Notes under the pieces: generated by a model
Databases searched by the model: none
What the model was told of the DNA's origin: nothing
Seen by the model: the letters and a program-made list of their open reading frames with translations, nothing else
Program-made: the position numbers and the translations under genes
DNA from: Escherichia phage vB_EcoM_P8
Reading direction: 5' to 3' (one strand)
Sequence record: PV390659.2
Length of the DNA stretch: 64,000 nucleotides
Shown: positions 5,604-33,620 of the stretch, piece after piece
How positions within the stretch are numbered: the stretch's first letter is position 1
How the letters are laid out: each line of letters begins with the position of its first letter

Positions 5604-6521
5604 ATGGATTTAGAAATGATGCTGGATGAAGATTACAAAGAAGGAATCTGCTTAATTGACTTTAGTCAAATTGCGCTTTCAACTGCTTTAGTAAACTTCC
5701 CAGATAAAGAAAAAATTAATTTATCAATGGTTCGTCATTTGATATTGAACTCAATTAAGTTTAATGTCAAAAAAGCAAAAACTCTTGGATACACTAAAAT
5801 TGTGTTGTGTATTGATAATGCGAAATCTGGATATTGGCGTCGTGATTTTGCTTATTATTATAAGAAAAACCGTGGAAAAGCACGAGAAGAATCTACTTGG
5901 GATTGGGAAGGTTATTTTGAATCCAGTCATAAAGTTATAGATGAATTGAAAGCTTATATGCCATACATTGTTATGGATATTGATAAGTATGAAGCAGATG
6001 ACCACATTGCTGTTCTTGTTAAAAAGTTCTCTTTAGAAGGACATAAAATTTTAATCATTTCATCGGATGGTGACTTTACTCAACTTCATAAGTATCCAAA
6101 TGTTAAGCAATGGTCACCGATGCATAAGAAATGGGTTAAAATTAAAAGCGGTTCTGCTGAAATTGACTGCATGACTAAAATCCTTAAAGGTGATAAAAAG
6201 GATAACGTCGCTTCAGTTAAAGTACGATCTGACTTTTGGTTTACCAGAGTTGAAGGCGAACGAACTCCTTCAATGAAAACATCTATTGTTGAAGCTATTG
6301 CTAATGACCGTGAGCAAGCTAAGGTGCTTCTCACTGAATCTGAATATAATCGATATAAAGAAAATTTAGTTCTAATTGATTTTGATTATATTCCTGATAA
6401 TATTGCTTCAAACATTGTGAATTACTATAATTCATATAAATTACCACCGCGTGGCAAAATTTATTCATATTTTGTAAAAGCGGGTCTTTCTAAATTAACT
6501 AATAGCATTAATGAATTTTGA
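5604..6521 (+). CDS. rnh: RNase H (5'-3' exonuclease / flap endonuclease)
   Basis: Translation from the internal Met (MDLEMMLDEDYKEG...) gives 305 aa, the T4 RNase H length; ORF-track start at 5589 is probably an upstream in-frame extension. Confidence 0.9.
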   Translation: MDLEMMLDEDYKEGICLIDFSQIALSTALVNFPDKEKINLSMVRHLILNSIKFNVKKAKTLGYTKIVLCIDNAKSGYWRRDFAYYYKKNRGKAREESTWDWEGYFESSHKVIDELKAYMPYIVMDIDKYEADDHIAVLVKKFSLEGHKILIISSDGDFTQLHKYPNVKQWSPMHKKWVKIKSGSAEIDCMTKILKGDKKDNVASVKVRSDFWFTRVEGERTPSMKTSIVEAIANDREQAKVLLTESEYNRYKENLVLIDFDYIPDNIASNIVNYYNSYKLPPRGKIYSYFVKAGLSKLTNSINEF

Positions 6522-6529
6522 GGTGAATA

Positions 6530-6799
6530 ATGGCTAAAAAAGAAATGGTTGAATTTGATGAAGCTATCCATGGCGAAGACTTGGCTAAATTTATTAAAGA
6601 AGCATCTGATCATAAACTGAAAATTTCTGGTTATAATGAATTGATTAAAGATATTCGAATTCGTGCCAAAGATGAACTTGGCGTTGATGGTAAGATGTTT
6701 AATCGTCTATTAGCTTTGTATCATAAAGATAACCGTGATGTGTTTGAAGCTGAAACCGAAGAGGTAGTTGAACTTTATGACACAGTTTTCTCTAAATGA
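6530..6799 (+). CDS. dsbA: Double-stranded DNA-binding protein DsbA
   Basis: 89 aa, MAKKEMVEFDEAIHG...; size and position between rnh and gene 33 as in T4. Confidence 0.8.
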   Translation: MAKKEMVEFDEAIHGEDLAKFIKEASDHKLKISGYNELIKDIRIRAKDELGVDGKMFNRLLALYHKDNRDVFEAETEEVVELYDTVFSK

Positions 6800-7115
6800 T
6801 ATTCGTCCGGTCGATGAGACCGGTCTTTCAGAAAAAGAACTTTCAATTAAGAAAGAAAAGGATGAAATAGCAAAGCTTCTTGACCGCCAAGAAAATGGAT
6901 TTATTATTGAAAAAATGGTAGAAGAGTTTGGAATGAGTTATCTTGAAGCTACAACAGCATTCTTGGAAGAAAATTCTATTCCTGAAACTCAATTTGCTAA
7001 ATTTATTCCTTCGGGTATAATTGAAAAAATTCAGTCAGAAGCTATTGACGAAAATCTTTTACGTCCTTCTGTTGTTCGTTGTGAAAAAACTAATACATTA
7101 GATTTTCTACTATGA
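6777..7115 (+). CDS. 33: Late transcription accessory protein gp33
   Basis: From internal Met (MTQFSLNDIRPVDETG...) 112 aa, matching T4 gp33; overlaps dsbA 3' end. Confidence 0.85.
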   Translation: MTQFSLNDIRPVDETGLSEKELSIKKEKDEIAKLLDRQENGFIIEKMVEEFGMSYLEATTAFLEENSIPETQFAKFIPSGIIEKIQSEAIDENLLRPSVVRCEKTNTLDFLL

Positions 7116-7765
7116 TTAAACTCCGCATGCCTGCTGGTGGTGAAAGATACATTGATGGTAAATCAGTTTATAAATTATACTTAATGATAAAACAACATAT
7201 GAATGGAAAGTATGATGTAATTAAGTATAATTGGTGCATGCGGGTGTCTGATGCCGCTTATCAAAAGCGAAGGGATAAGTATTTTTTCCAGAAGTTATCA
7301 GAAAAATATAAATTAAAGGAACTTGCTTTAATCTTTATAAGCAATCTTGTTGCTAACCAAGATGCTTGGATTGGTGACATCTCTGACGCTGATGCACTTG
7401 TGTTTTATCGTGAATATATCGGACGCTTAAAGCAAATTAAATTTAAGTTTGAAGAAGATATTCGCAACATTTATTATTTTAGTAAAAAAGTTGAAGTTTC
7501 TGCTTTTAAAGAAATCTTTGAGTATAATCCAAAAGTTCAATCAAGTTATATTTTTAAACTACTTCAATCGAATATAATTTCGTTTGAGACGTTTATCTTG
7601 CTTGATTCGTTTTTAAATATAATCGATAAACATGATGAACAGACTGATAATTTAGTCTGGAATAATTATTCTATAAAGTTAAAGGCTTATAGAAAAATTT
7701 TAAATATTGATTCGCAGAAAGCTAAAAGTGTTTTCATTGAAACTGTGAAATCCTGCAAGTATTAA
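7112..7765 (+). CDS. 59: Helicase loader gp59
   Basis: 217 aa, MIKLRMPAGGERYIDGKSVYKLY...; length and position match T4 gp59. Confidence 0.85.
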   Translation: MIKLRMPAGGERYIDGKSVYKLYLMIKQHMNGKYDVIKYNWCMRVSDAAYQKRRDKYFFQKLSEKYKLKELALIFISNLVANQDAWIGDISDADALVFYREYIGRLKQIKFKFEEDIRNIYYFSKKVEVSAFKEIFEYNPKVQSSYIFKLLQSNIISFETFILLDSFLNIIDKHDEQTDNLVWNNYSIKLKAYRKILNIDSQKAKSVFIETVKSCKY

Positions 7766-7773
7766 TTGCTTAT

Positions 7774-7781
7774 TATAAATA
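7774..7781 (+). promoter_or_regulatory. Late-type promoter upstream of gene 32
   Basis: TATAAATA on + strand with an adjacent TATAAT; gene 32 is known to have several promoters. Confidence 0.45.
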
Positions 7782-7798
7782 GATTATAATTATCTCAC

Positions 7799-7864
7799 TG
7801 ACCAGCTATGAGGTCATACATCGTCATAGCACCAACTGTTAATTAAATTAAAAAGGAAATAAAA
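7799..7864 (+). promoter_or_regulatory. Gene 32 translational operator: pseudoknot plus unstructured A/U-rich leader
   Basis: Stem 1 TGACC(7799-7803)/GGTCA(7812-7816) and stem 2 GCTATGA(7805-7811)/TCATAGC(7824-7830) interlock as a pseudoknot, followed by AATTAAATTAAAAAGGAAATAAAA before the ATG. Confidence 0.7.
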
Positions 7865-8773
7865 ATGTTTAAACGTAAATCTACTGCTGAACTCGCTGCA
7901 CAAATGGCTAAACTGGCTGGAAATAAAGGTGGTTTTTCTTCTGAAGATAAAGGCGAGTGGAAACTGAAACTCGATAATGCGGGTAACGGTCAAGCAGTAA
8001 TTCGTTTTCTTCCGTCTAAAAATGATGAACAAGCACCATTCGCAATTCTTGTAAATCACGGTTTCAAGAAAAATGGTAAATGGTATATTGAAAACTGTTC
8101 ATCTACCCACGGTGATTACGATTCTTGCCCAGTATGTCAGTACATCAGTAAAAATGATTTGTACAACACTGACAATAAAGAGTATGGTCTTGTTAAACGT
8201 AAAACTTCTTACTGGGCTAACATTCTTGTTGTAAAAGACCCAGCTGCTCCAGAAAATGAAGGTAAAGTATTTAAATATCGTTTCGGTAAGAAAATCTGGG
8301 ATAAAATCAACGCAATGATTGCAGTTGATGTTGAAATGGGTGAAACCCCAGTTGATGTAACTTGTCCGTGGGAAGGTGCTAACTTTGTACTGAAAGTTAA
8401 ACAAGTTTCTGGTTTTAGTAACTACGACGAATCTAAATTCCTGAATCAATCTGCGATTCCAAACATTGATGATGAATCTTTCCAGAAAGAACTGTTCGAA
8501 CAAATGGTTGACCTTTCTGAAATGACTTCTAAAGATAAATTCAAATCGTTTGAAGAACTGAGCACTAAGTTCAGTCAAGTTATGGGAACTGCTGCTATGG
8601 GTGGTGCCGCTGCAACTGCCGCTAAGAAAGCTGATAAAGTTGCTGATGATTTGGATGCATTCAATGTTGATGACTTCAAAACAAAAACTGAAGATGATTT
8701 TATGAGCTCAAGCTCTGGCAGTTCATCTAGTGCTGATGACACGGACCTGGATGACCTTTTGAATGACCTTTAA
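7865..8773 (+). CDS. 32: Single-stranded DNA-binding protein gp32
   Basis: 302 codons; [17 protein letters not shown]... with acidic Ser/Asp-rich C-terminal tail; classic gp32. Confidence 0.95.
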
Positions 8774-8795
8774 TAGATTATATTACTAATTAATT

Positions 8796-8823
8796 GGGGA
8801 CCCTAGAGGTCCCCTTTTTATTT
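8796..8823 (+). terminator. Intrinsic terminator after gene 32
   Basis: GGGGACC-CTAGA-GGTCCCC stem-loop followed by TTTTTATTT. Confidence 0.6.
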
Positions 8824-8844
8824 CAAAATTTTTTTCACAAAACT

Positions 8845-8876
8845 GTTTACATCTCTGTTCTTCCATGGTACTATAC
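8845..8876 (+). promoter_or_regulatory. Early promoter
   Basis: GTTTAC at 8845-8850 with an A/T-rich -10-like region ~17 bp downstream; precedes the 8918 ORF. Confidence 0.4.
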
Positions 8877-8917
8877 AACTATCGGCAATACTGCTGACGA
8901 TTAAAGAGGAAAATAAT

Positions 8918-9145
8918 ATGGCTAAAGTTGATATTGACATCGTTGATTTTGAATATATTGAAGAAATTATTCGTAATCGTTATCCTGAACTTAGTATCAC
9001 AAGCGTACAAGATTCTAAGTTTTGGAGTATTCAAATCGTTATTGAAGGTCCTCTTGAAAACCTCACCCGCTTTATGGCTAATGAATACTGTGATGGTATG
9101 GATTCTGAAGACGCAGAATTTTACATGGGACTGATTGAACAATAA
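8918..9145 (+). CDS. Hypothetical small protein (frd.3-like position)
   Basis: 75-aa ORF with upstream early-type promoter and SD; no recognisable motif. Confidence 0.5.
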
Positions 9146-9165
9146 CTATCAAGCCCCCTATCAAA

Positions 9166-9567
9166 ATGAGGAAAATCAAAATGGAAATTGGCAAAAAATA
9201 TGAGTTAAATCCACATCGTATTAAATCTTTCATTGATATTAGTTCATCAAATGCTAATATGGTCGGCATCATTCAAGAAAATGGTGGTTGGTTTGAAGTT
9301 AAATCAATATCAAGTTTAGATGGCTTTGATTATGTAACTGAAATCATTTGTGCTAATGGCGAAATCTATAATGATGATGGTATGGGTGATGATTATTTTG
9401 AACTTAGTGAAGAAGAGTTTTACTGTTTCCGCGAGTATAAAGAACCAACTTCTGAAGAAGATGAAGTCGAAGATAAGATTTCTGGCGTAACAAAAATTCA
9501 CTGCATTGTAGACGAAAACAATGTAGATGAAATCATTGAACTTTTGCGAAAAACTTTCAAAAAGTAG
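9166..9567 (+). CDS. Hypothetical acidic protein (frd.2-like position)
   Basis: 133-aa ORF, Asp/Glu-rich C-terminal half; start may be the internal Met at 9181. Confidence 0.5.
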   Translation: MRKIKMEIGKKYELNPHRIKSFIDISSSNANMVGIIQENGGWFEVKSISSLDGFDYVTEIICANGEIYNDDGMGDDYFELSEEEFYCFREYKEPTSEEDEVEDKISGVTKIHCIVDENNVDEIIELLRKTFKK

Positions 9568-9596
9568 TTTACAGAAGGGTAGTAGTGTGATACTAT
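9567..9596 (+). promoter_or_regulatory. Early promoter
   Basis: GTTTAC at 9567-9572 with -10-like GATACTAT; imperfect inverted repeat GGGTAGTAG/CTATTACCC around it. Confidence 0.4.
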
Positions 9597-9621
9597 TACC
9601 CTATCAACTAAGGAGAATAAA

Positions 9622-9864
9622 ATGAGATTACAACGTCAGAGCATTAAAGATTCAGAAGTTAGAGGTAAATGGTATTTTAATATCATCGGTAAAGATTCTG
9701 AACTTGTTGAAAAAGCTGAACGTCTTTTGCGTGATATGGGATGGGAAGATGAATGTGATGGATGCCCTCTTTATGAGGATGGAGAAAGCGCAGGATTCTG
9801 GATTTACCATTCTGACGTTGAACAGTTTAAAGCTGATTGGAAAATTGTGAAAAAGTCTGTTTGA
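9622..9864 (+). CDS. Hypothetical protein
   Basis: 80-aa ORF preceded by AGGAG SD (9611-9615) and an early-type promoter. Confidence 0.5.
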   Translation: MRLQRQSIKDSEVRGKWYFNIIGKDSELVEKAERLLRDMGWEDECDGCPLYEDGESAGFWIYHSDVEQFKADWKIVKKSV

Positions 9865-9874
9865 GGAAAATATT

Positions 9875-10210
9875 ATGTCTGACATTCACGTAACTGGAAT
9901 TTCACAAGTAAACATTCGCTGCCAATTTAAAACTGTACCTGGGGTGACTCATATTACTTTATCACATGACCCATATTCTCGTGGAACACAGTTAACTGGT
10001 GTAATTAAGTTTTTCGGTGGAATTGGCGGAAACGAATTTACTATAGGCGATGACGAAATTGTTGGTTGTAAATTAAAAGTTCAGAAGGGAGTGTTAGAAC
10101 TTTTTAGTGATGAAGTTTTTGATGAAATCTCACGAGCAGTTAATAAAGGAATGTTAACGTTAATTAAAATGATTAAAGCCAGTGGATATGTTCCCGATCC
10201 TTTATATTAG
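9875..10210 (+). CDS. Hypothetical protein
   Basis: 111-aa ORF, tightly packed after the previous ORF; no recognisable motif. Confidence 0.45.
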   Translation: MSDIHVTGISQVNIRCQFKTVPGVTHITLSHDPYSRGTQLTGVIKFFGGIGGNEFTIGDDEIVGCKLKVQKGVLELFSDEVFDEISRAVNKGMLTLIKMIKASGYVPDPLY

Positions 10211-25809: not shown

Positions 25810-26260
25810 GTTAGAGATAAGAAGCAATTTTAGATGGCCATCATGCGCATTAAGTAATTTCGCCCAATGGCCTTTCGTTATGGATGGTATTCAATTTGGA
25901 GGTCTCGAAGGATTCCTCCAAGGATGCAAGGTGAAAAATGTTGAACAACAGCGTCGTATATTTGGGTTATCCGGGCTTGCCGCCCAACAAGCTGGAAGGT
26001 CTTATGCTAGAGCTCAGGACCGTGGCACGTTGTTCTGGCTTGGAACTCCGTTTTCAAGATATTCCGAAGCATGGAAAGAATTATACACAAATGCATATTT
26101 TGAAGCAGCGATCCAAAACAGGGGCTTTCGCGATGCATTACAAGCCTCGAAAGGAAAAGTTTTGAAGCACAGCATGGCTAGTGGTCTAACAAAAGATGAT
26201 ACAATACTAACCGAAGCTGAATTTATTGATGTGTTAAATCTATTAAGAGACTCTCTATGA
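25796..26260 (+). CDS. Hypothetical protein (30.3-like position; possible NADAR/YbiA-like fold, unverified)
   Basis: 154-aa ORF; family suggestion is from memory of T4 30.3 annotation, not confirmed here. Confidence 0.4.
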   Translation: MKMSELEIRSNFRWPSCALSNFAQWPFVMDGIQFGGLEGFLQGCKVKNVEQQRRIFGLSGLAAQQAGRSYARAQDRGTLFWLGTPFSRYSEAWKELYTNAYFEAAIQNRGFRDALQASKGKVLKHSMASGLTKDDTILTEAEFIDVLNLLRDSL

Positions 26261-27120
26261 AGCCTACTATTTTGACTGATATTGATGGAGTATGTTTAAG
26301 CTGGCAATCAGGCCTTCCTTATTTTGCTCAGAAATATAATCTTCCGTTAGAACATATTTTAAAAATGATCCAAGATGAGAAATTTATTTCTCCGGGTAAA
26401 CTCTTTAATTGTGATGAAGAACTTGGTGTCAAGTTAATTGAAAAATACAATCGTTCAGATTTTATTCGTTACTTGTCTCCGTATAAAGATGCTCTGTGTG
26501 TAATTAACAAATTAAAAGAAGATTATAATTTTGTAGCTGTTACAGCATTGGGTGATTCTATTGACGCTCTGTTGAATCGTCAATTTAATTTGAATGCTCT
26601 TTTTCCTGGTGCCTTCTCAGAAGTAATGATGTGTGGTCATGATTCTTCAAAAGAAGAGTTGTTCAAAAAGGCAAAAGAGAAATATAACGTAATTTGTTAC
26701 ATTGACGATCTCGCTCACCATTGCGATCATGCGAGTGAAATATTAAATGTTCCTGTTTATTGGATGGCGCGAGGAGAGCGTGACAATATTCCAAAAACTG
26801 CGCAGCGAGTTTATACATGGAATGATGTAGAAAATAAGCTTTTTTCGCCGAAGGAAAATAAAGAAAGTTTTGATAGTGAAAAAGCTATAAAAGATGTAAT
26901 TGAGAAGATGGTTAAAAACGATTCTTTTCGTTGGAACACTACCTGGAGAACTCCTGGATTTAATCCGTATAACCCATATTATACACATCCATATAATCCA
27001 TATTATACACACCCGTATCATATGAATCCATTCCATACGTGGAGTTATACTAAGCCTGGTGATGCAGGGTATTTTAATAGATTTACTAGTGGTGATAATA
27101 TTTTCCAAGGAGCATTCTAA
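26257..27120 (+). CDS. HAD-like hydrolase with C-terminal Pro/Tyr-rich repeat (30.2-like)
   Basis: 287 aa; N-terminal DIDGV motif; C-terminal NPYNPYYTHPYNPYYTHPYHMNPFH repeat. Confidence 0.5.
   Translation: MKPTILTDIDGVCLSWQSGLPYFAQKYNLPLEHILKMIQDEKFISPGKLFNCDEELGVKLIEKYNRSDFIRYLSPYKDALCVINKLKEDYNFVAVTALGDSIDALLNRQFNLNALFPGAFSEVMMCGHDSSKEELFKKAKEKYNVICYIDDLAHHCDHASEILNVPVYWMARGERDNIPKTAQRVYTWNDVENKLFSPKENKESFDSEKAIKDVIEKMVKNDSFRWNTTWRTPGFNPYNPYYTHPYNPYYTHPYHMNPFHTWSYTKPGDAGYFNRFTSGDNIFQGAF
26962..27035 (+). repeat. In-frame tandem repeat (24-bp period) in the 3' end of the HAD-like gene
   Basis: CCATATTATACACA occurs at 26974-26987 and 26998-27011, encoding NPYYTHPY units. Confidence 0.6.
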
Positions 27121-27389: not shown

Positions 27390-28849
27390 TTCTTAAAATT
27401 CTGAATGAAATAGCATCTATTGGATCAACTAAGCAGAAGCAAGCAATTCTTGAAAAGAATAAAGATAATGAATTGCTTAAACGGGTATATCGTCTGACTT
27501 ATTCTCGTGGGTTACAGTATTATATCAAGAAATGGCCTAAACCTGGTATTGCTACCCAGAGTTTTGGAATGCTGACTATTACCGATATGCTTGACTTCAT
27601 TGAATTCACGTTAGCTACTCGGAAATTGACCGGAAATGCTGCAATTGAGGAATTGACTGGATATATCACCGATGGTAAAAAGGATGATGTTGAAGTTTTG
27701 CGTCGAGTGATGATGCGAGACCTTGAATGCGGTGCTTCAGTATCTATTGCAAACAAAGTTTGGCCAGGTTTAATTCCTGAACAACCTCAAATGCTGGCAA
27801 GTTCTTATGATGAAAAGGGCATTAGTAAGAATATCAAGTTTCCAGCTTTTGCACAGTTAAAAGCAGATGGAGCTCGGTGTTTTGCTGAAGTCCGAGGTGA
27901 TGAATTAGATGATGTTCGTCTTTTATCACGAGCTGGTAATGAATATCTAGGATTAGATCTTCTTAAGGAAGAGTTAATCAAAATGACTGCTGAAGCCCGC
28001 CAGATTCATCCAGAAGGTGTGTTAATTGATGGCGAATTGGTATACCATGAGCAAGTTAAAAAGGAACCAGAAGGCCTAGATTTTCTTTTTGATGCTTATC
28101 CTGAAATTAGTAAAGCTAAAGAATTCGCCGAAGTAGCGGAATCTCGTACTGCTTCTAATGGAATCGCCAATAAATCCTTAAAAGGAACCATTTCTGAAAA
28201 AGAAGCTCAATGCATGAAGTTTCAGGTCTGGGATTATGTCCCGTTGATAGAAATATACGGTCTTCCGGCGTTTCGTTTAAAATATGATGTACGTTTTTCT
28301 AAACTAGAACAAATGACATCAGGATATGATAAAGTAATTTTAATTGAAAACCAGGTAGTAAATAACCTAGATGAAGCTAAGGTAATTTATAAAAAGTATA
28401 TTGACCAAGGTCTTGAAGGTATTATTCTCAAAAATACCGATGGATTGTGGGAAAATGCTCGTTCAAAAAATCTCTATAAATTTAAAGAAGTAATTGATGT
28501 TGATTTAAAAATTGTAGGAATTTATCCTCACCGTAAAGACCCTACTAAAGCAGGTGGATTTATTCTTGAATCAGAGTGTGGAAAAATTAAAGTAAATGCT
28601 GGTTCAGGCTTAAAAGATAAAGCCGGTGTAAAATCACATGAACTTGACCGTACTCGCATTATGGAAAACCAAAATTATTATATTGGAAAAATTCTAGAGT
28701 GCGAATGCAACGGTTGGCTAAAATCTGATGGCCGCACTGATTACGTTAAATTATTTCTTCCGATTGCGATTCGTTTACGTGAAGATAAAACTAAAGCTAA
28801 TACATTCGAGGATGTATTTGGTGATTTTCATGAGGTAACTGGTCTATGA
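27386..28849 (+). CDS. 30: ATP-dependent DNA ligase
   Basis: 487 aa (T4 ligase length); adenylation lysine motif (AQLKADGAR). Confidence 0.9.
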   Translation: MILKILNEIASIGSTKQKQAILEKNKDNELLKRVYRLTYSRGLQYYIKKWPKPGIATQSFGMLTITDMLDFIEFTLATRKLTGNAAIEELTGYITDGKKDDVEVLRRVMMRDLECGASVSIANKVWPGLIPEQPQMLASSYDEKGISKNIKFPAFAQLKADGARCFAEVRGDELDDVRLLSRAGNEYLGLDLLKEELIKMTAEARQIHPEGVLIDGELVYHEQVKKEPEGLDFLFDAYPEISKAKEFAEVAESRTASNGIANKSLKGTISEKEAQCMKFQVWDYVPLIEIYGLPAFRLKYDVRFSKLEQMTSGYDKVILIENQVVNNLDEAKVIYKKYIDQGLEGIILKNTDGLWENARSKNLYKFKEVIDVDLKIVGIYPHRKDPTKAGGFILESECGKIKVNAGSGLKDKAGVKSHELDRTRIMENQNYYIGKILECECNGWLKSDGRTDYVKLFLPIAIRLREDKTKANTFEDVFGDFHEVTGL

Positions 28850-29034
28850 AAGCTTACTTAGAAACAATTGTCGTTGCTCAAAAAGAAGGTGGAGATGTTT
28901 CTACTTCTGTATCACAAATTATGATTGAATTTATAGATGCATATGCTTATAATAAATTCACAGAAACATTTGATGCCTATGAAAAAGGTCCAAAGTTTGA
29001 AATATACCGTACTCTCTTACCAATAGATTATTAA
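28846..29034 (+). CDS. Hypothetical small protein
   Basis: 62-aa ORF overlapping ligase stop; followed by a hairpin. Confidence 0.4.
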   Translation: MKAYLETIVVAQKEGGDVSTSVSQIMIEFIDAYAYNKFTETFDAYEKGPKFEIYRTLLPIDY

Positions 29035-29055: not shown

Positions 29056-29063
29056 TATAAATA
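29056..29063 (+). promoter_or_regulatory. Late promoter (TATAAATA) upstream of alt
   Basis: TATAAATA ~24 nt upstream of the alt ATG; Alt is a virion protein. Confidence 0.5.
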
Positions 29064-29086
29064 GAATAAACACTAGAGAGGCTATG

Positions 29087-31180
29087 ATGGAACTTATTAC
29101 AGAATTATTTGACGAAGATACTACTCTTCCAATTACAAACTTAAATCCAAAGAAGAAAATACCGCAAATTTTTTCAGTTCATGTTGATGACGCAATTGAA
29201 CAACCAGGCTTTCGTTTATGTACCTATACATCTGGAGGTGATACTAATCGCGATTTAAAAATGGGCGATAAAATGATGCATATTGTTCCTTTTACATTAA
29301 CTGCTAAAGGTTCAATTGCTAAATTAAAAGGTCTCGGTCCAAGCCCAATTAATTACATTAATTCAGTTTTTACTGTTGCAATGCAGACGATGCGTCAGTA
29401 TAAAATTGATGCCTGCATGCTCCGTATTCTTAAGTCTAAAACTGCTGGTCAAGCTCGACAAATTCAAGTTATTGCTGATAGACTTATCCGTAGTCGTTCG
29501 GGTGGCAGATACGTCCTTCTTAAAGAACTCTGGGATTACGATAAAAAGTATGCATATATTCTTATACATCGCAAAAATGTATCACTAGAAGACATTCCAG
29601 GAGTTCCGGAAATTAGTACCGAGCTCTTTACTAAAGTTGAATCGAAAGTCGGCGATGTTTATATCAATAAAGATACTGGAGCTCAAGTAACTAAAAATGA
29701 GGCAATTGCAGCATCTATTGCACAAGAAAATGATAAACGTTCTGACCAAGCTGTTATTGTTAAAGTTAAAATTTCCCGTAGAGCAATTGCGCAAAGTCAA
29801 TCATTAGAATCTTCTAGATTTGAAAGCGAATTATTCCAGAAGTATGAATCTACTGCAGCTAATTTCAATAAACCTGCTACAGCTCCTTTAATTCCCGAAG
29901 CAGAAGAAATGAAGCTTGGAATTAATTCATTAGCTTCTAAAACTAAGGCAGCAAAAATTATTGCCGAAGGAACCGCAGATGAACTTCATTATGACTATAA
30001 ATTCTTTTCAAAAAGTGAGGTTAATGAAGTTTCTGAAAAAATTAAAGATGTAATTCTTAATGCGATTAAAAATGAACCGACTACTTCAATAAAATGTTTA
30101 GAGAAATACGCAGCAGCTGTTAATCAATTATTTGAAGAATATAAAGATAATTGGCTTGATAAACATAATAAAACCCGTAAAGGACAGCCAGATGAAGTCT
30201 GGGAAGAAATGACTAAAAATTCCTGGAACGCAGCAAAAACTAAATTCCTCAAAAGAATGATTTACAGCTTTTCTGGAATTGGTGCAGGTCCAATGATTGA
30301 TATTACTATTGCCCGTGATGGTTCTAAATATACTCCATCACAAAAGCGCGGCATTAGAGAGTATTGTGGTTCAGGATATACTGACATCAATAATCTTCTT
30401 TTGGGTCGTTACAATCCAGAACGATATGATGTAATGAGTGAAAAAGAAATTGAATCTGCTATAAATAACTTAGATTCAGCTTTTGAAAACGGTGACCGTA
30501 TACCAGAAGGCATTACAGTTTATCGTGCTCAAAGCATGACTGCTCCTATATACGAAGCACTAGTTAAAAATAAAGTGTTCTATTTCAGAAATTTTGTATC
30601 TACTTCTTTAACTCCTATCATTTTTGGACGTTTTGGAATTACACATGCTGGTATTGGTCTTTTAGAACCAGAAGCTCGTAACGAATTGACAGTTGATAAA
30701 AATGAAGAAGGAATAACTATTAATCCAAACGAAATAAGAGCGTATAAAGAAAATCCTGAATACGTTAAAGTTCAAATAGGATGGGCAATTGATGGAGCTC
30801 ATAAAGTTAATGTTGTATATCCAGGAAGTCTCGGAATAGCAACAGAAGCTGAAGTAATTCTACCACGCGGATTGATGGTCAAAGTTAATAAAATAACTGA
30901 TGCTTCTAATAATGATGGAACAACATCTAATAATACAAAACTCATTCAAGCTGAAGTTATGACTACGGAAGAACTCACCGAATCAGTCATTTATGACGGT
31001 GACCGTCTAATGGAAACTGGTGAAGTAGTTGCAATGACAGGTGATATTGAAATAGAAGACAGAGTTGACTTTGCATCATTTGTTTCATCAAATGTTAAAC
31101 AAAAAGTAGAATCATCTCTTGGAATTATTGCATCTTGCATAGATATTGCAAACATGCCTTACAAGTTCGTTCAAGGATAA
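29087..31180 (+). CDS. alt: ADP-ribosyltransferase Alt (virion-packaged)
   Basis: 697 aa from MELITELFD...; ART-type motifs (YRAQ, NFVSTSLT, EAEVILPRG); late-type TATAAATA upstream. Confidence 0.8.
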   Translation: MELITELFDEDTTLPITNLNPKKKIPQIFSVHVDDAIEQPGFRLCTYTSGGDTNRDLKMGDKMMHIVPFTLTAKGSIAKLKGLGPSPINYINSVFTVAMQTMRQYKIDACMLRILKSKTAGQARQIQVIADRLIRSRSGGRYVLLKELWDYDKKYAYILIHRKNVSLEDIPGVPEISTELFTKVESKVGDVYINKDTGAQVTKNEAIAASIAQENDKRSDQAVIVKVKISRRAIAQSQSLESSRFESELFQKYESTAANFNKPATAPLIPEAEEMKLGINSLASKTKAAKIIAEGTADELHYDYKFFSKSEVNEVSEKIKDVILNAIKNEPTTSIKCLEKYAAAVNQLFEEYKDNWLDKHNKTRKGQPDEVWEEMTKNSWNAAKTKFLKRMIYSFSGIGAGPMIDITIARDGSKYTPSQKRGIREYCGSGYTDINNLLLGRYNPERYDVMSEKEIESAINNLDSAFENGDRIPEGITVYRAQSMTAPIYEALVKNKVFYFRNFVSTSLTPIIFGRFGITHAGIGLLEPEARNELTVDKNEEGITINPNEIRAYKENPEYVKVQIGWAIDGAHKVNVVYPGSLGIATEAEVILPRGLMVKVNKITDASNNDGTTSNNTKLIQAEVMTTEELTESVIYDGDRLMETGEVVAMTGDIEIEDRVDFASFVSSNVKQKVESSLGIIASCIDIANMPYKFVQG

Positions 31181-31183
31181 ATC

Positions 31184-33241
31184 ATGGAACTTATTACAGA
31201 ATTATTTGACGGCGCTTCGGCGCCGGTTGTTAACTTAAATCCCAAGCATAAAATACCTCAAATTTTTGCTATTCAAGCCGGTGAAGAAAGCGTGCTTCCT
31301 GGATTTAGATTTTGTACATACACCTCTGGCGGTGATACAAATAAAAACGTTAAGCCAGGCGATAAAATGATGCATATCGTAATGATAGGTGTCAATGAAA
31401 AGCTATCATTAGTTAAACTTAAAAACTTAGGTGGAAATCCAATTGGTGTCATTAATGCGGTTTTTGATACTGCTCTTCAAACAATGAAACAGTATAAAAT
31501 TGACGCATGCCTGTTCCGCGTACTAAAGAGTAAAACAAACGGTGCAGCTCGTCAAATGCAAGTTATTGCCGACCGTTTAGTACGTACCAAAGGAGCAGGT
31601 CGATATGTTCTTTTAAAGGAAATCTGGGACTATGATAAAAAGTATGCATATATTATGGTTTACCGTAAAAATGCTAATTTAGAAGACATTCCAGGTGTAC
31701 CTCCTATTTCAACTGAGTTATTCACAAAAGTTGAATCAAAGGTTGGTGATGTTTATGTAGACGTTAAAACAGGTAATGCTGTTCATAAAGCTGTCGCTGT
31801 TGCTGCTTCTATTGCCTTAGAAAATGATAAGCGCACGGATCAAGCTGTTATTCAGAAAACTAAAATTAGTCGTCGATTAGCAGCACAAGCTCAATACTCT
31901 ACTGTCGATGCTTCACTTCAGGGTGATAGCTTCGCTGCTAAGAAATATCAAGAGTTTGAATCTAAAGTTCCGGTATATAAAGCAGAAGGACCAATGAACT
32001 CCGGCGTTATTCAGGTTGGTTCAAACTTCAGCAAAGGAGCTATCGGTGGTATGAGAAGTGCTTCTCGTTTTAAATCTAATGATTATGAACTAGAAAGCTT
32101 CCGAAATCATATTGCATTGGCTCATGCACGTTTACGTGATCCATCTATCAAGCTGCAGAGCGATATAACATATCAAGGTTCTCAAGAATATTTAAAGAAT
32201 AAAGAATTTTTTGATTATAAAACTGATAAAATTTTAAGCGATCTCGCTGACATTAATATTTCTAATAGCTTTGATGTTATTAAGAAAATTATCAATGATT
32301 TAGTTAAAGGTTCTAAAGCCACGCCAGACGAAAAGGTAGCTATTGTTCAATTTGTCATGAATGGCATTTATAAATTGATTAATGAGTCTGCTTCTCAAGC
32401 GTATGAATATGCAAGTACTGAAGTACCCCCAAAAGGATTAACTCAGGCTGAGTCTGATGTAATTGAAGATTATTGCGCGGATTCATATGTTGAAATGAAC
32501 TCGTTCCTTTTAGGTAAACCGGATTCTACTCGTGAAGAATATATGGAACGAGCTATTAAACACATCGAGACGATGGATTCTGCTTTTGCCAAAGGATCAG
32601 TTCTTCCTCCAGGAACTACGCTTTACCGTGGCCAAGAAGTTACCTTTAAAACTTTACGTCATAATATTGAAAATAAAATGTTCTATTTTAAGAACTTCGT
32701 ATCCACATCGCTTAAACCAAATATCTTCGGTGAGTATGGTAAAAACTATATGGCTCTAGATGATTCCAGCGCAGTATTTTCTGGTGAAGGAGAAGGTTCT
32801 GTTGACGCAGAAGATTTGATGCATATGGGCAGTCACTCTGCTTATGCGAATGAAGATGCTGAAACTAGCGTAGGTATGGTAATAAAAGGAGCTGAGCGAA
32901 TCAAAGTTATCGTTCCGGGTCATTTATCAGGATTTCCGTCAGAAGCTGAAGTTATTTTACCACGTGGAATTTTGCTGAAGATTAATAAAGTGAGCACGTA
33001 CATGATGAAAGAAACTGCTTATAACAAGTATTTAATCGAAGGTACAATCGTTCCTCCTTCTGAACAATTAGAAGAATCGGTATATGATGGCGATCATCTG
33101 ATGGAAACTGGTGAAGTTCGTCCAATGGCTGGATTTAATCAATTCCTTGTAGAAGAATCAAAAGAAGAGGAAAACGAAGTTTCTCAAATCTTGGCTTCTT
33201 TGGTTAACATCAACGGAATGTCTAAAAAGTTCAAGATGTAG
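31184..33241 (+). CDS. Alt-like ADP-ribosyltransferase paralogue
   Basis: 685 aa; N-terminus MELITELFD... and C-terminal catalytic region (YRGQ, NFVSTSLK, EAEVILPRG) align with the upstream alt; central region diverged. Confidence 0.75.
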   Translation: MELITELFDGASAPVVNLNPKHKIPQIFAIQAGEESVLPGFRFCTYTSGGDTNKNVKPGDKMMHIVMIGVNEKLSLVKLKNLGGNPIGVINAVFDTALQTMKQYKIDACLFRVLKSKTNGAARQMQVIADRLVRTKGAGRYVLLKEIWDYDKKYAYIMVYRKNANLEDIPGVPPISTELFTKVESKVGDVYVDVKTGNAVHKAVAVAASIALENDKRTDQAVIQKTKISRRLAAQAQYSTVDASLQGDSFAAKKYQEFESKVPVYKAEGPMNSGVIQVGSNFSKGAIGGMRSASRFKSNDYELESFRNHIALAHARLRDPSIKLQSDITYQGSQEYLKNKEFFDYKTDKILSDLADINISNSFDVIKKIINDLVKGSKATPDEKVAIVQFVMNGIYKLINESASQAYEYASTEVPPKGLTQAESDVIEDYCADSYVEMNSFLLGKPDSTREEYMERAIKHIETMDSAFAKGSVLPPGTTLYRGQEVTFKTLRHNIENKMFYFKNFVSTSLKPNIFGEYGKNYMALDDSSAVFSGEGEGSVDAEDLMHMGSHSAYANEDAETSVGMVIKGAERIKVIVPGHLSGFPSEAEVILPRGILLKINKVSTYMMKETAYNKYLIEGTIVPPSEQLEESVYDGDHLMETGEVRPMAGFNQFLVEESKEEENEVSQILASLVNINGMSKKFKM

Positions 33242-33295
33242 TTTACAAGTCCCTCGTGTTGTGTTATAATAATCTTACTGACATAACATGAGGAA
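33241..33295 (+). promoter_or_regulatory. Early promoter plus conserved leader, copy 2
   Basis: GTTTACAAGTCCCTCGTGTTGTGTTATAATAATCTTACTGACATAACATGAGGAA; -10 TATAAT at 33265-33270. Confidence 0.55.
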
Positions 33296-33301
33296 CACAA
33301 A

Positions 33302-33592
33302 ATGAAATCTTCTTTACGCTTTTTAGGTCAAGAACTTGTAGTTGAAGGCGTTATTCCTGCTGATAACGCTTTTAATGAAGCAGTTTACGATGAATTTATC
33401 AAAATTTTTGGAACAGATAAAAAGTTCGGAATTTTTCCTTCTGAAAATTTTTCAAAGCCAGAACAGACTGAAAGCATTTTCCAGGGTGTAGTAACAGGTA
33501 AATTTGAATCAGAAGCTCCGGTAAAAATTGAAGTTTATATTGAAGACAGTTTAGTTGCTTCAGTTGCTGCTTTTATTTCATTCCGTAAATAA
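33302..33592 (+). CDS. Hypothetical protein
   Basis: 96-aa ORF with its own early promoter and SD (GAGGA); followed by a bidirectional terminator. Confidence 0.5.
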   Translation: MKSSLRFLGQELVVEGVIPADNAFNEAVYDEFIKIFGTDKKFGIFPSENFSKPEQTESIFQGVVTGKFESEAPVKIEVYIEDSLVASVAAFISFRK

Positions 33593-33597
33593 AAACA

Positions 33598-33615
33598 TGG
33601 GGACCGAAAGGTCCC
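33598..33615. terminator. Bidirectional terminator between convergent genes
   Basis: GGGGACC-GAAA-GGTCCCC with T-rich runs on both strands; lies between the 33302 ORF (+) and gene 54 (-). Confidence 0.6.
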
Positions 33616-33620
33616 CATTG

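Follow-up and report, generated by a model that had tools for sequence, protein, structure and literature searches.

A tandem pair of alt-type ADP-ribosyltransferase genes in Escherichia phage vB_EcoM_P8, and its counterpart in T4

Two full-length alt-type genes, referred to here as alt1 and alt2, lie in tandem in the genome of Escherichia phage vB_EcoM_P8, within the 64,000-nucleotide stretch of DNA that was analysed (hereafter, the window). They are best read as the normal two-gene alt locus of T-even phages, encoding two paralogous ADP-ribosyltransferases (ARTs) that would be co-transcribed late, packaged into the head, trimmed by the gp21 protease, and injected to act on different host targets; the probability of this reading is put at about 0.85. 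The tandem arrangement is real, ordinary, and already known, T4 being the exception. Duplications of alt were remarked on in a 2006 paper, and the same functional-divergence argument was made in a 2026 paper. The present analysis adds the origin of the T4 remnant, the purifying selection acting on alt2, the predicted gp21 sites of alt2, and signs of cassette exchange between genera.

Layout and predicted transcription of the locus

The genes hold the conserved position of Alt in the Tevenvirinae, between gene 30/alt.1 and alt.-3/gene 54. The features of the region are as follows, in window positions.

28846..29034, + strand: alt.1 homolog, 62 aa (Pfam PF24647, Phage_blade)
29056..29063, + strand: putative T4-type late promoter box, TATAAATA (pattern search and reading of the sequence)
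29087..31180, + strand: alt1 (ORF, similarity, Pfam, PHROG, AF2 and Foldseek)
30524..30853, + strand: catalytic residues of alt1 (R480 at 30524-30526, S505-T-S507 at 30599-30607, E587-A-E589 at 30845-30853)
31184..33241, + strand: alt2, the intact counterpart of T4 alt.-1/alt.-2
31532..33230, + strand: segment of alt2 deleted in T4, 1,699 bp (DNA alignment and BLASTN coordinates)
31901..32413, + strand: middle region of alt2, aa 240-410, predicted all-helical
32627..32950, + strand: catalytic residues of alt2 (R482 at 32627-32629, S507-T-S509 at 32702-32710, E587-A-E589 at 32942-32950)
33242..33270, + strand: early-type promoter (TTTACA, 17-nt spacer, TATAAT; 11/12 match)
33302..33592, + strand: alt.-3 homolog, 96 aa (DUF5498)

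As the original prediction had it, the two ORFs encode proteins of 697 and 685 aa, the former if translation starts at the downstream member of a pair of adjacent ATGs (698 aa if it starts at 29084). Escherichia phage vB_EcoM_BMB16 matches the window at 100% identity, and its GenBank record calls the same two CDSs. The upstream neighbour of alt1, the alt.1 homolog, overlaps the end of the DNA ligase gene 30, and a bidirectional terminator hairpin (33597-33618) lies between the alt.-3 homolog and the convergent gene 54.

The consensus of T4 late promoters is well established, and its match to TATAAATA at 29056, 23 nt upstream of the alt1 start, points to a late promoter. A GC-rich hairpin (AGGCCTTCGGGCCT) precedes this box. 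A second TATAAATA, which the pattern search returned inside alt1 at 30460, speaks against the simple model of one late promoter. Judging from the consensus matches, both genes would be co-transcribed late from the box upstream of alt1, since neither a terminator nor a promoter was found at the alt1-alt2 junction and alt2 starts only 3 nt past the alt1 stop, with its own Shine-Dalgarno sequence (AAGGA). The early-type promoter found directly after the alt2 stop, a sequence that T4 keeps downstream of its deletion, would serve alt.-3.

Divergence of the two paralogs and conservation of the ART domain

The pairwise alignment proposed with the original prediction gives 41% identity over 718 columns (BLASTP, E = 1e-157), with no catalytic residue lacking in alt2, and alt1 and alt2 are thus tandem paralogs. 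The shared N-terminus and catalytic region that had been described are borne out, at 68% (residues 1-235) and 34% identity, respectively, versus 18% in the diverged middle (~240-410); the C-terminal tail is 42% identical. At the DNA level, the duplication takes the form of in-register direct repeats spaced by ~2,094 nt; the two ORFs are identical over their first 28 nt, and the first nine residues, MELITELFD, are common to both. Recent gene conversion between the N-terminal domains could be ruled out, as dS is saturated there (1.49); their 68% identity therefore reflects constraint, and not recent homogenisation.

Sequence similarity between the middle of alt1 (29804-30316) and that of alt2 is undetectable, and hhalign likewise gave no detectable remote homology (A-type versus B-type, probability 0.5%, E 0.12). 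The predictions give both middles a helical structure, with about as many helices in one as in the other, and extreme divergence may explain their dissimilarity.

Both proteins match the Pfam family PF03496 (ADPrib_exo_Tox) well above its curated cut-off of 23.4 bits (alt1, 129.2 bits, E 1.6e-37; alt2, 72.9 bits, E 2.8e-20), and PHROG 802, 'Alt-like RNA polymerase ADP-ribosyltransferase', from end to end (E 1e-272 and 8e-255, respectively). The Tevenvirinae-specific N-terminal domain, PF26846 (Tevenvirinae_ADPRT), is precomputed for close homologs of the Alt proteins, and no NCBIfam family matched either protein. The R / S-T-S / E-x-E motifs had been predicted to be intact in both genes: they occur in the expected order (R480, STS 505-507, and EAE 587-589 in alt1; R482, STS 507-509, and EAE 587-589 in alt2) and form invariant columns in an alignment of 16 diverse Alt proteins. 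In a profile alignment, the E-A-E of Alt is aligned with the Q-Y-E of C3cer (4xsg_B). T4 Alt is active, and its E577A mutant is catalytically dead (PMC11404850). This residue would be the second glutamate of the E-x-E motif, our own translation numbering the T4 E-M-E 574-576.

The AF2 models of both proteins comprise an N-terminal alpha/beta domain, a helical middle, an ART domain, and a low-confidence C-terminal tail, with an inter-domain geometry that is unreliable given the shallow alignments (16 sequences). The alt1 model (pLDDT 75.5) was matched by Foldseek to Vis, CDTa, Ia, VIP2, and C3, and the ART fold found here is that of the R-S-E clade. A phmmer search of the PDB with alt2 gave no match, and a profile search returned toxin ARTs only, with no solved Alt structure. 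Taken at the level of motifs and fold, alt1 and alt2 are predicted to encode R-S-E (C3/VIP2-type) mono-ADP-ribosyltransferases, Alt2 being a putatively active enzyme. In its ART domain, Alt has the fold and catalytic triad of the C3, VIP2, iota-Ia, CDTa, and Vis toxins (PF03496), but it differs from these by its PF26846 domain and helical middle, and by its delivery from the phage head, with neither a binary-toxin B component nor a secretion signal.

Could alt2 nevertheless be a decaying or catalytically dead duplicate heading to the T4 state, retained only through hitch-hiking or for a structural role in the core? Deletion has removed alt2 from T4 and some of its relatives without obvious harm, and the protein database contains truncated Alt2-cluster members (415-624 aa), although these may be cut by contig ends. 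However, R482, S507, S509, E587, and E589 are invariant across genera, and dN/dS between the window and T6 is low over all four regions of alt2 (0.02 in the N-terminal domain, 0.10 in the middle, 0.05 in the ART domain, and 0.04 in the C-terminal tail), showing that the gene is under strong purifying selection. Its full body, including the part missing from T4, is moreover kept at 93-100% nucleotide identity in 401 phage records, T2 and T6 among them, and orthologs are retained in Dhakavirus and KM16. Decay is, therefore, highly improbable.

Two functional ARTs could also be redundant copies kept for dosage, acting on the same targets, for example the RNA polymerase alpha subunit. Indeed, alt1 and alt2 agree in architecture, catalytic motifs, and locus, and probably in expression. 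Against this, the ART domains have only about a third of their residues in common, the middles have no detectable similarity, and the two lineages have been separate since before the split between Tequatrovirus and Dhakavirus, while compact phage genomes would rarely maintain redundant duplicates for so long, all of which makes a dosage effect unlikely. In the preferred reading of two enzymes with distinct roles, alt1 would correspond to T4 Alt, which has the RNA polymerase alpha subunit among its targets, and the extent of the divergence suggests that the unrelated helical middles, together with the ART domains, could send the two enzymes to different host targets. That the diverged middle confers a different target specificity, as originally proposed, is thus plausible, the more so as alt2 is under purifying selection.

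Predicted processing, packaging, and injection

T4 Alt is cut by the gp21 protease at ITE-6 and LTE-619, yielding a protein of 68.2 kDa (PMC5694885), a mass that our own calculation reproduces. The gp21 motifs at both ends (ITE-6, and L-x-E ~55-65 residues from the C-terminus) are present at aligned positions in alt1 and alt2. The predicted sites are ITE-6 and LTE-632 in alt1, for a predicted mature protein of 70.1 kDa, and ITE-6 and LEE-631 in alt2 (the latter aligned with LTE-619 of T4), for 69.2 kDa. E6 and E631 are invariant columns in the Alt alignment, the tail past the second site has a pLDDT below 50 in both AF2 models, and in alt2 the C-terminal L-x-E site is followed by an invariant YDGDxLMETGE motif. 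As alt2 keeps both of the sites mapped in T4 Alt, its product is probably head-packaged and injected. Both proteins would enter the prohead core via their shared N-terminal domain, be trimmed by gp21 at the two sites in the manner of T4 Alt, and, once injected with the DNA, ADP-ribosylate host proteins.

Alternatively, Alt2 may be an active ART that is neither packaged nor injected, acting late inside the producing cell, like ModA/ModB. No virion proteomics or biochemistry of a second Alt paralog was found in the literature, and neither the searched literature nor the present analysis gave direct evidence for the presence of Alt2 in virions, its cleavage, its injection, or its enzymatic activity. 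T4 heads hold only ~40 copies of Alt (PMC9026906), so that a second paralog need not have a place in them. Nevertheless, alt2 retains the N-terminal domain seen in alt1, starting with the MELITELFD segment that includes ITE-6, as well as the C-terminal site and its YDGDxLMETGE sequel, and these features are known only from prohead targeting and gp21 processing. In addition, it lies directly behind alt1, under the same putative late promoter. A purely intracellular Alt2 is, for these reasons, improbable, and packaging followed by injection is preferred. Since T4 and its close relatives lack alt2, and since even alt is non-essential in T4 (PMC9026906), any function of Alt2 is conditional.

The T4 remnant, distribution, and apparent cassette exchange

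T4 does have one full alt accompanied by small ORFs (alt.-1, alt.-2, and alt.-3), as stated in the original prediction. T4 alt.-1 (NP_049810) and alt.-2 (NP_049809) show ~95% DNA identity to the first ~350 nt of alt2, and the PHROG families of these two ORFs match alt2 (E 2e-40 and 3e-38) far better than alt1 (E 1e-21 and 2e-19). T4 lacks one A of the A-run at ~31343-31347, a 1-bp frameshift that splits alt.-1 from alt.-2, and both ends of its 1,699-bp deletion lie in a 9-nt near-repeat, CTAAA(G/A)AGT; downstream of the deletion, the last codons of alt2, its stop, and the downstream early promoter are kept. The two ORFs, annotated in T4 as 'an old duplication of the first part of gene alt', are thus the 5' stump of alt2 after a frameshift and a 1.7-kb deletion, i.e., the remnant of a full-length paralog that is whole in the window, and not a partial duplication.

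It had also been envisaged that the tandem arrangement might be the standard annotated state in all T-even genomes. This is nearly the case: the pair is the majority, annotated state in Tequatrovirus, often as "Alt-like RNA polymerase ADP-ribosyltransferase (x2)", but T4 lacks an intact alt2. The same arrangement between alt.1 and alt.-3 is found in JS10/JS98 (Dhakavirus), where the genes of JS10 are named alta/altb, and in Salmonella phage KM16, and the N-terminal domain is carried by ~1,200 Straboviridae records. Hundreds of genomes already have the pair annotated, JS10 has names for it, and it has been discussed in the literature, so that its description has little discovery value. Nearly all knowledge of injected phage ADP-ribosyltransferases comes, however, from T4, which is atypical at this locus twice over: it has lost alt2, and its alt1 cassette is the less common one. 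Two different ARTs are probably injected by the majority of T-even phages, T2 and T6 among them, and what the second one modifies would be easy to test with existing ADP-ribosyl-proteomics and phage-engineering methods.

T4 Alt (NP_049811), a head-packaged NAD+:arginine mono-ADP-ribosyltransferase, has the same locus and neighbours as the window (gene 30, alt.1, alt, alt.-3, and 54), and alt1 shares with it ITE-6, the L-T-E processing site, the R/STS/ExE residues, and the three-part architecture. Their N-terminal domains are ~100% identical (one substitution, N19Y) and their C-terminal tails 96%, whereas the middle is only 33% and the ART domain 64% identical, with a dS above 1 there versus 0.14-0.26 in the flanks. 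This high divergence indicates that the alt1 cassette (middle plus ART domain) is of the T2/T6 type and not of the T4 type. By comparison, the overall identity between alt2 and T4 Alt is only ~41%.

Across genera, alt1 and JS10 AltA share 94% identity in the ART domain (dS 0.46), in contrast to 46% in the N-terminal domain (dS 2.3), and alt2 groups with JS10 AltB in trees of the ART domain and middle region. N-terminal domains are 42-46% identical across genera versus 65-68% within a genome; consequently, the sequences cluster by phage in the N-terminal tree but by paralog in the ART tree. The N-terminal domain thus appears to follow the phage lineage, and the middle+ART cassettes to have been exchanged between genera. 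The grouping of N-terminal domains by genome could stem from older concerted evolution, independent duplications, or cassette exchange. A broader, tentative reading, given slightly less than even odds, is that alt is a two-slot modular effector locus resembling polymorphic toxins, in which interchangeable middle+ART cassettes that recombine between genera would sit between an N-terminal head-packaging domain, specific to the phage lineage, and a C-terminal propeptide. Alt2 would then be injected as a second enzyme and act on host targets of its own, perhaps a defence or stress system, and would have escaped study because the model phage T4 deleted alt2.

At least two cassette types occur in the first slot among Tequatrovirus records, the T2/T6 type (346 records) and the T4 type (174 records). 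The T4-type alt1 cassette is not tied to the loss of alt2: in a51, fFiEco06, and W143, an intact alt2 follows a cassette of this type.

Tandem alt genes in T-even phages

Two adjacent ORFs of 697 and 685 aa had been predicted at 29087-33241, and the ORF call agrees, coordinates included. They lie on one strand and are separated by 3 nt:

29084/29087-31180, + strand: alt1, counterpart of T4 Alt, ORF call of 698 or 697 aa
31184-33241, + strand: alt2, its paralog, ORF call of 685 aa

The pairwise alignment that had been proposed as a check gives 41% identity (BLASTP, E = 1e-157). This value varies strongly between four regions, and the predicted layout, a common N-terminus and catalytic region with a diverged middle, is borne out. 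DNA repeats run in register across both genes at a spacing of about 2,094 nt, which confirms a tandem duplication. Both proteins match Pfam PF03496 and are covered over their full length by PHROG 802 ('Alt-like RNA polymerase ADP-ribosyltransferase'). The R / S-T-S / E-x-E residues of the ART domain are, as predicted, kept in both, and they are unvarying among 16 diverse Alt proteins.

Table. Regions in alt2 numbering: alt1 vs alt2 identity; dN and dS of the window's alt2 vs T6 alt2.
N-terminal domain, aa 1-235: 68%; dN 0.004; dS 0.203
Middle, aa 240-410: 18%; dN 0.020; dS 0.193
ART domain, aa 415-620: 34%; dN 0.019; dS 0.379
C-terminal tail, aa 621-685: 42%; dN 0.006; dS 0.167

The tandem pair is thus real, correctly read, and ordinary for T-even phages. 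The whole two-gene stretch is covered to at least 80% in 353 records, many of them annotated 'Alt-like RNA polymerase ADP-ribosyltransferase (x2)' or alt_1/alt_2. T6 carries a pair of identical sizes (697 + 685 aa), Salmonella phage KM16 has 697 + 707 aa at the corresponding position, and the pair of Dhakavirus JS10 is named alta and altb. With the N-terminal domain as a tblastn query, 1,817 places are found in 1,201 records: two copies in Tequatrovirus and Dhakavirus, a single one in Mosigvirus-like and Klebsiella phages, and three in one Pseudomonas phage record. Alt paralogs, among them a full-length one in 44RR and T4 alt.-1/alt.-2, were listed by Nolan et al. 2006 (PMC1524935), and a divergence in function that widens the range of targets has been proposed in print (PMC13600099); given this literature and the wide annotation, neither the pair nor its interpretation is new.

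Annotation of the locus differs between records. Over 4.85 kb the sequence matches that of Escherichia phage vB_EcoM_BMB16 (PV102577.1, Tequatrovirus) at 100% identity, and in that record both genes (5773-9927, corresponding to 29087-33241) are annotated just as 'hypothetical protein'; in RB14, the full-length second copy is labelled 'alt.-2'.

The remnant of alt2 in T4

The T4 record describes alt.-1/alt.-2 as 'an old duplication of the first part of gene alt', a note which appears to misread their history. The T4 region aligns with 31095-31531 at 95% DNA identity, and the PHROG families of alt.-1 and alt.-2 match alt2 far better than alt1. T4 lacks one A in the run at about 31343-31347, which creates the stop dividing alt.-1 from alt.-2, and a further 1,699 bp (31532-33230) are deleted (T4 side, NC_000866 123065-123450; locus L001, 5066-5451). 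The deletion ends overlap within a 9-nt near-repeat, CTAAA(G/A)AGT, and past them T4 still has the last few codons of alt2 with their stop, as well as the early promoter that follows. Judged by these alignments, alt.-1/alt.-2 are what a 1-bp frameshift and the 1,699-bp deletion have left of a full-length alt2, namely its 5' part, and T4 therefore represents the derived state. The alt2 part absent from T4 (31620-33241) is found at 93-100% nucleotide identity in 401 phage records covering at least 80% of it, including T2, T6, RB27, and AR1. The T4-type deletion is common to a subset of phages (e.g., fPS-2, PD112), and a51, fFiEco06, and W143 combine a T4-type alt1 with an intact alt2.

Selection, processing, and expression

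The dN/dS ratio of alt2 (0.02-0.10 over the four regions, vs T6) indicates strong purifying selection on every part of the gene. In AF2 models, built on shallow alignments (pLDDT 73.3 and 75.5), the two paralogs are laid out alike: the N-terminal domain (~15-215) is alpha/beta, the middle (~250-410; pLDDT 80-92) is helical, and the ART domain is followed by a C-terminal tail of low confidence.

T4 Alt is a prohead-core protein present at about 40 copies per head (PMC9026906), and is cut by the prohead protease gp21 after ITE-6 and LTE-619, yielding 68.2 kDa (PMC5694885), the same mass as calculated here. The aligned predicted sites are ITE-6/LTE-632 in alt1 (70.1 kDa) and ITE-6/LEE-631 in alt2 (69.2 kDa); E6 and E631 are unvarying in the Alt alignment, as is the subsequent Y-D-G-D-x-L-M-E-T-G-E. 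The modelled tail of alt2 is disordered beyond the predicted site, and low confidence starts about 20 residues beyond it in alt1. The aligned sites, the unvarying motif, and the modelled tail are evidence, though not proof, that Alt2 shares the packaging, processing, and injection of Alt.

The motif itself (alt2 aa 634-644, 33083-33115; alt1 aa 636-646; 16/16 diverse Alts) lies just past the predicted C-terminal site, within the propeptide, yet does not vary. It includes another L-x-E (LME), and targeting, second cleavage, or inhibition are candidate roles.

The gene order, the same in T4, is 30.3, 30.2, 30.1, DNA ligase (30), alt.1, alt1, alt2, and alt.-3; beyond these lie the baseplate/tail genes 54, 48, and 29 in convergent orientation. 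The signals around the pair are:

29056-29063: T4 late-promoter box TATAAATA, just upstream of alt1 (pattern match)
33242-33270: near-consensus early promoter, after alt2
33597-33618: bidirectional terminator, after alt.-3

No promoter-like or terminator-like site was seen at the alt1-alt2 junction, and alt2 has its own Shine-Dalgarno sequence. The upstream late box, the signal-free junction, and the downstream signals make late co-transcription of both genes likely. Within alt1, some 720 nt ahead of alt2, the late-promoter box TATAAATA recurs exactly (30460-30467, +); this may be coincidence, or it may mark an additional start of late transcription inside the gene.

Possible exchange of the middle and ART domain

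Compared with T4 Alt, alt1 is almost identical in the N-terminal domain (~100%, one substitution; dS 0.14) and C-terminal tail (96%; dS 0.26), whereas the cassette between them (29804-30967) differs, with 33% identity in the middle, 64% in the ART domain, and dS >1. This cassette is of the T2/T6 type, found in 346 records, including the T2 alt sequence X69893; the T4 type is found in 174. JS10 AltA is 94% identical to alt1 in the ART domain (dN 0.036, dS 0.46) but 46% in the N-terminal domain (dS 2.3), which points to exchange of the alt1 cassette between genera. In neighbour-joining trees, N-terminal domains cluster by phage (JS10 AltA with AltB) and ART domains by paralog type. No similarity was detected by hhalign between alt1-type and alt2-type middles (probability 0.5%), whereas the alt2-type middle resembles that of the KM16 second-position type (probability 97.8%). 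These patterns fit the hypothesis of a locus in which exchangeable effector cassettes would sit within a conserved packaging frame.

Two neighbouring genes also deserve mention. The alt.1 homolog (28846-29034, 62 aa) matches Pfam PF24647 ('Phage blade protein'); its T6 counterpart (NC_054907; locus L004, 727-915) is called 'siderophore-interacting protein', which looks like an annotation copied from some other record. The 30.2 homolog (26257-27120) contains a 24-nt tandem repeat (26963-27018, 2.3 copies, 87% matches), coding for a repeated NPYNPYYTHPY peptide close to the C-terminus of its product, which is 287 aa long vs 278 aa in T4.
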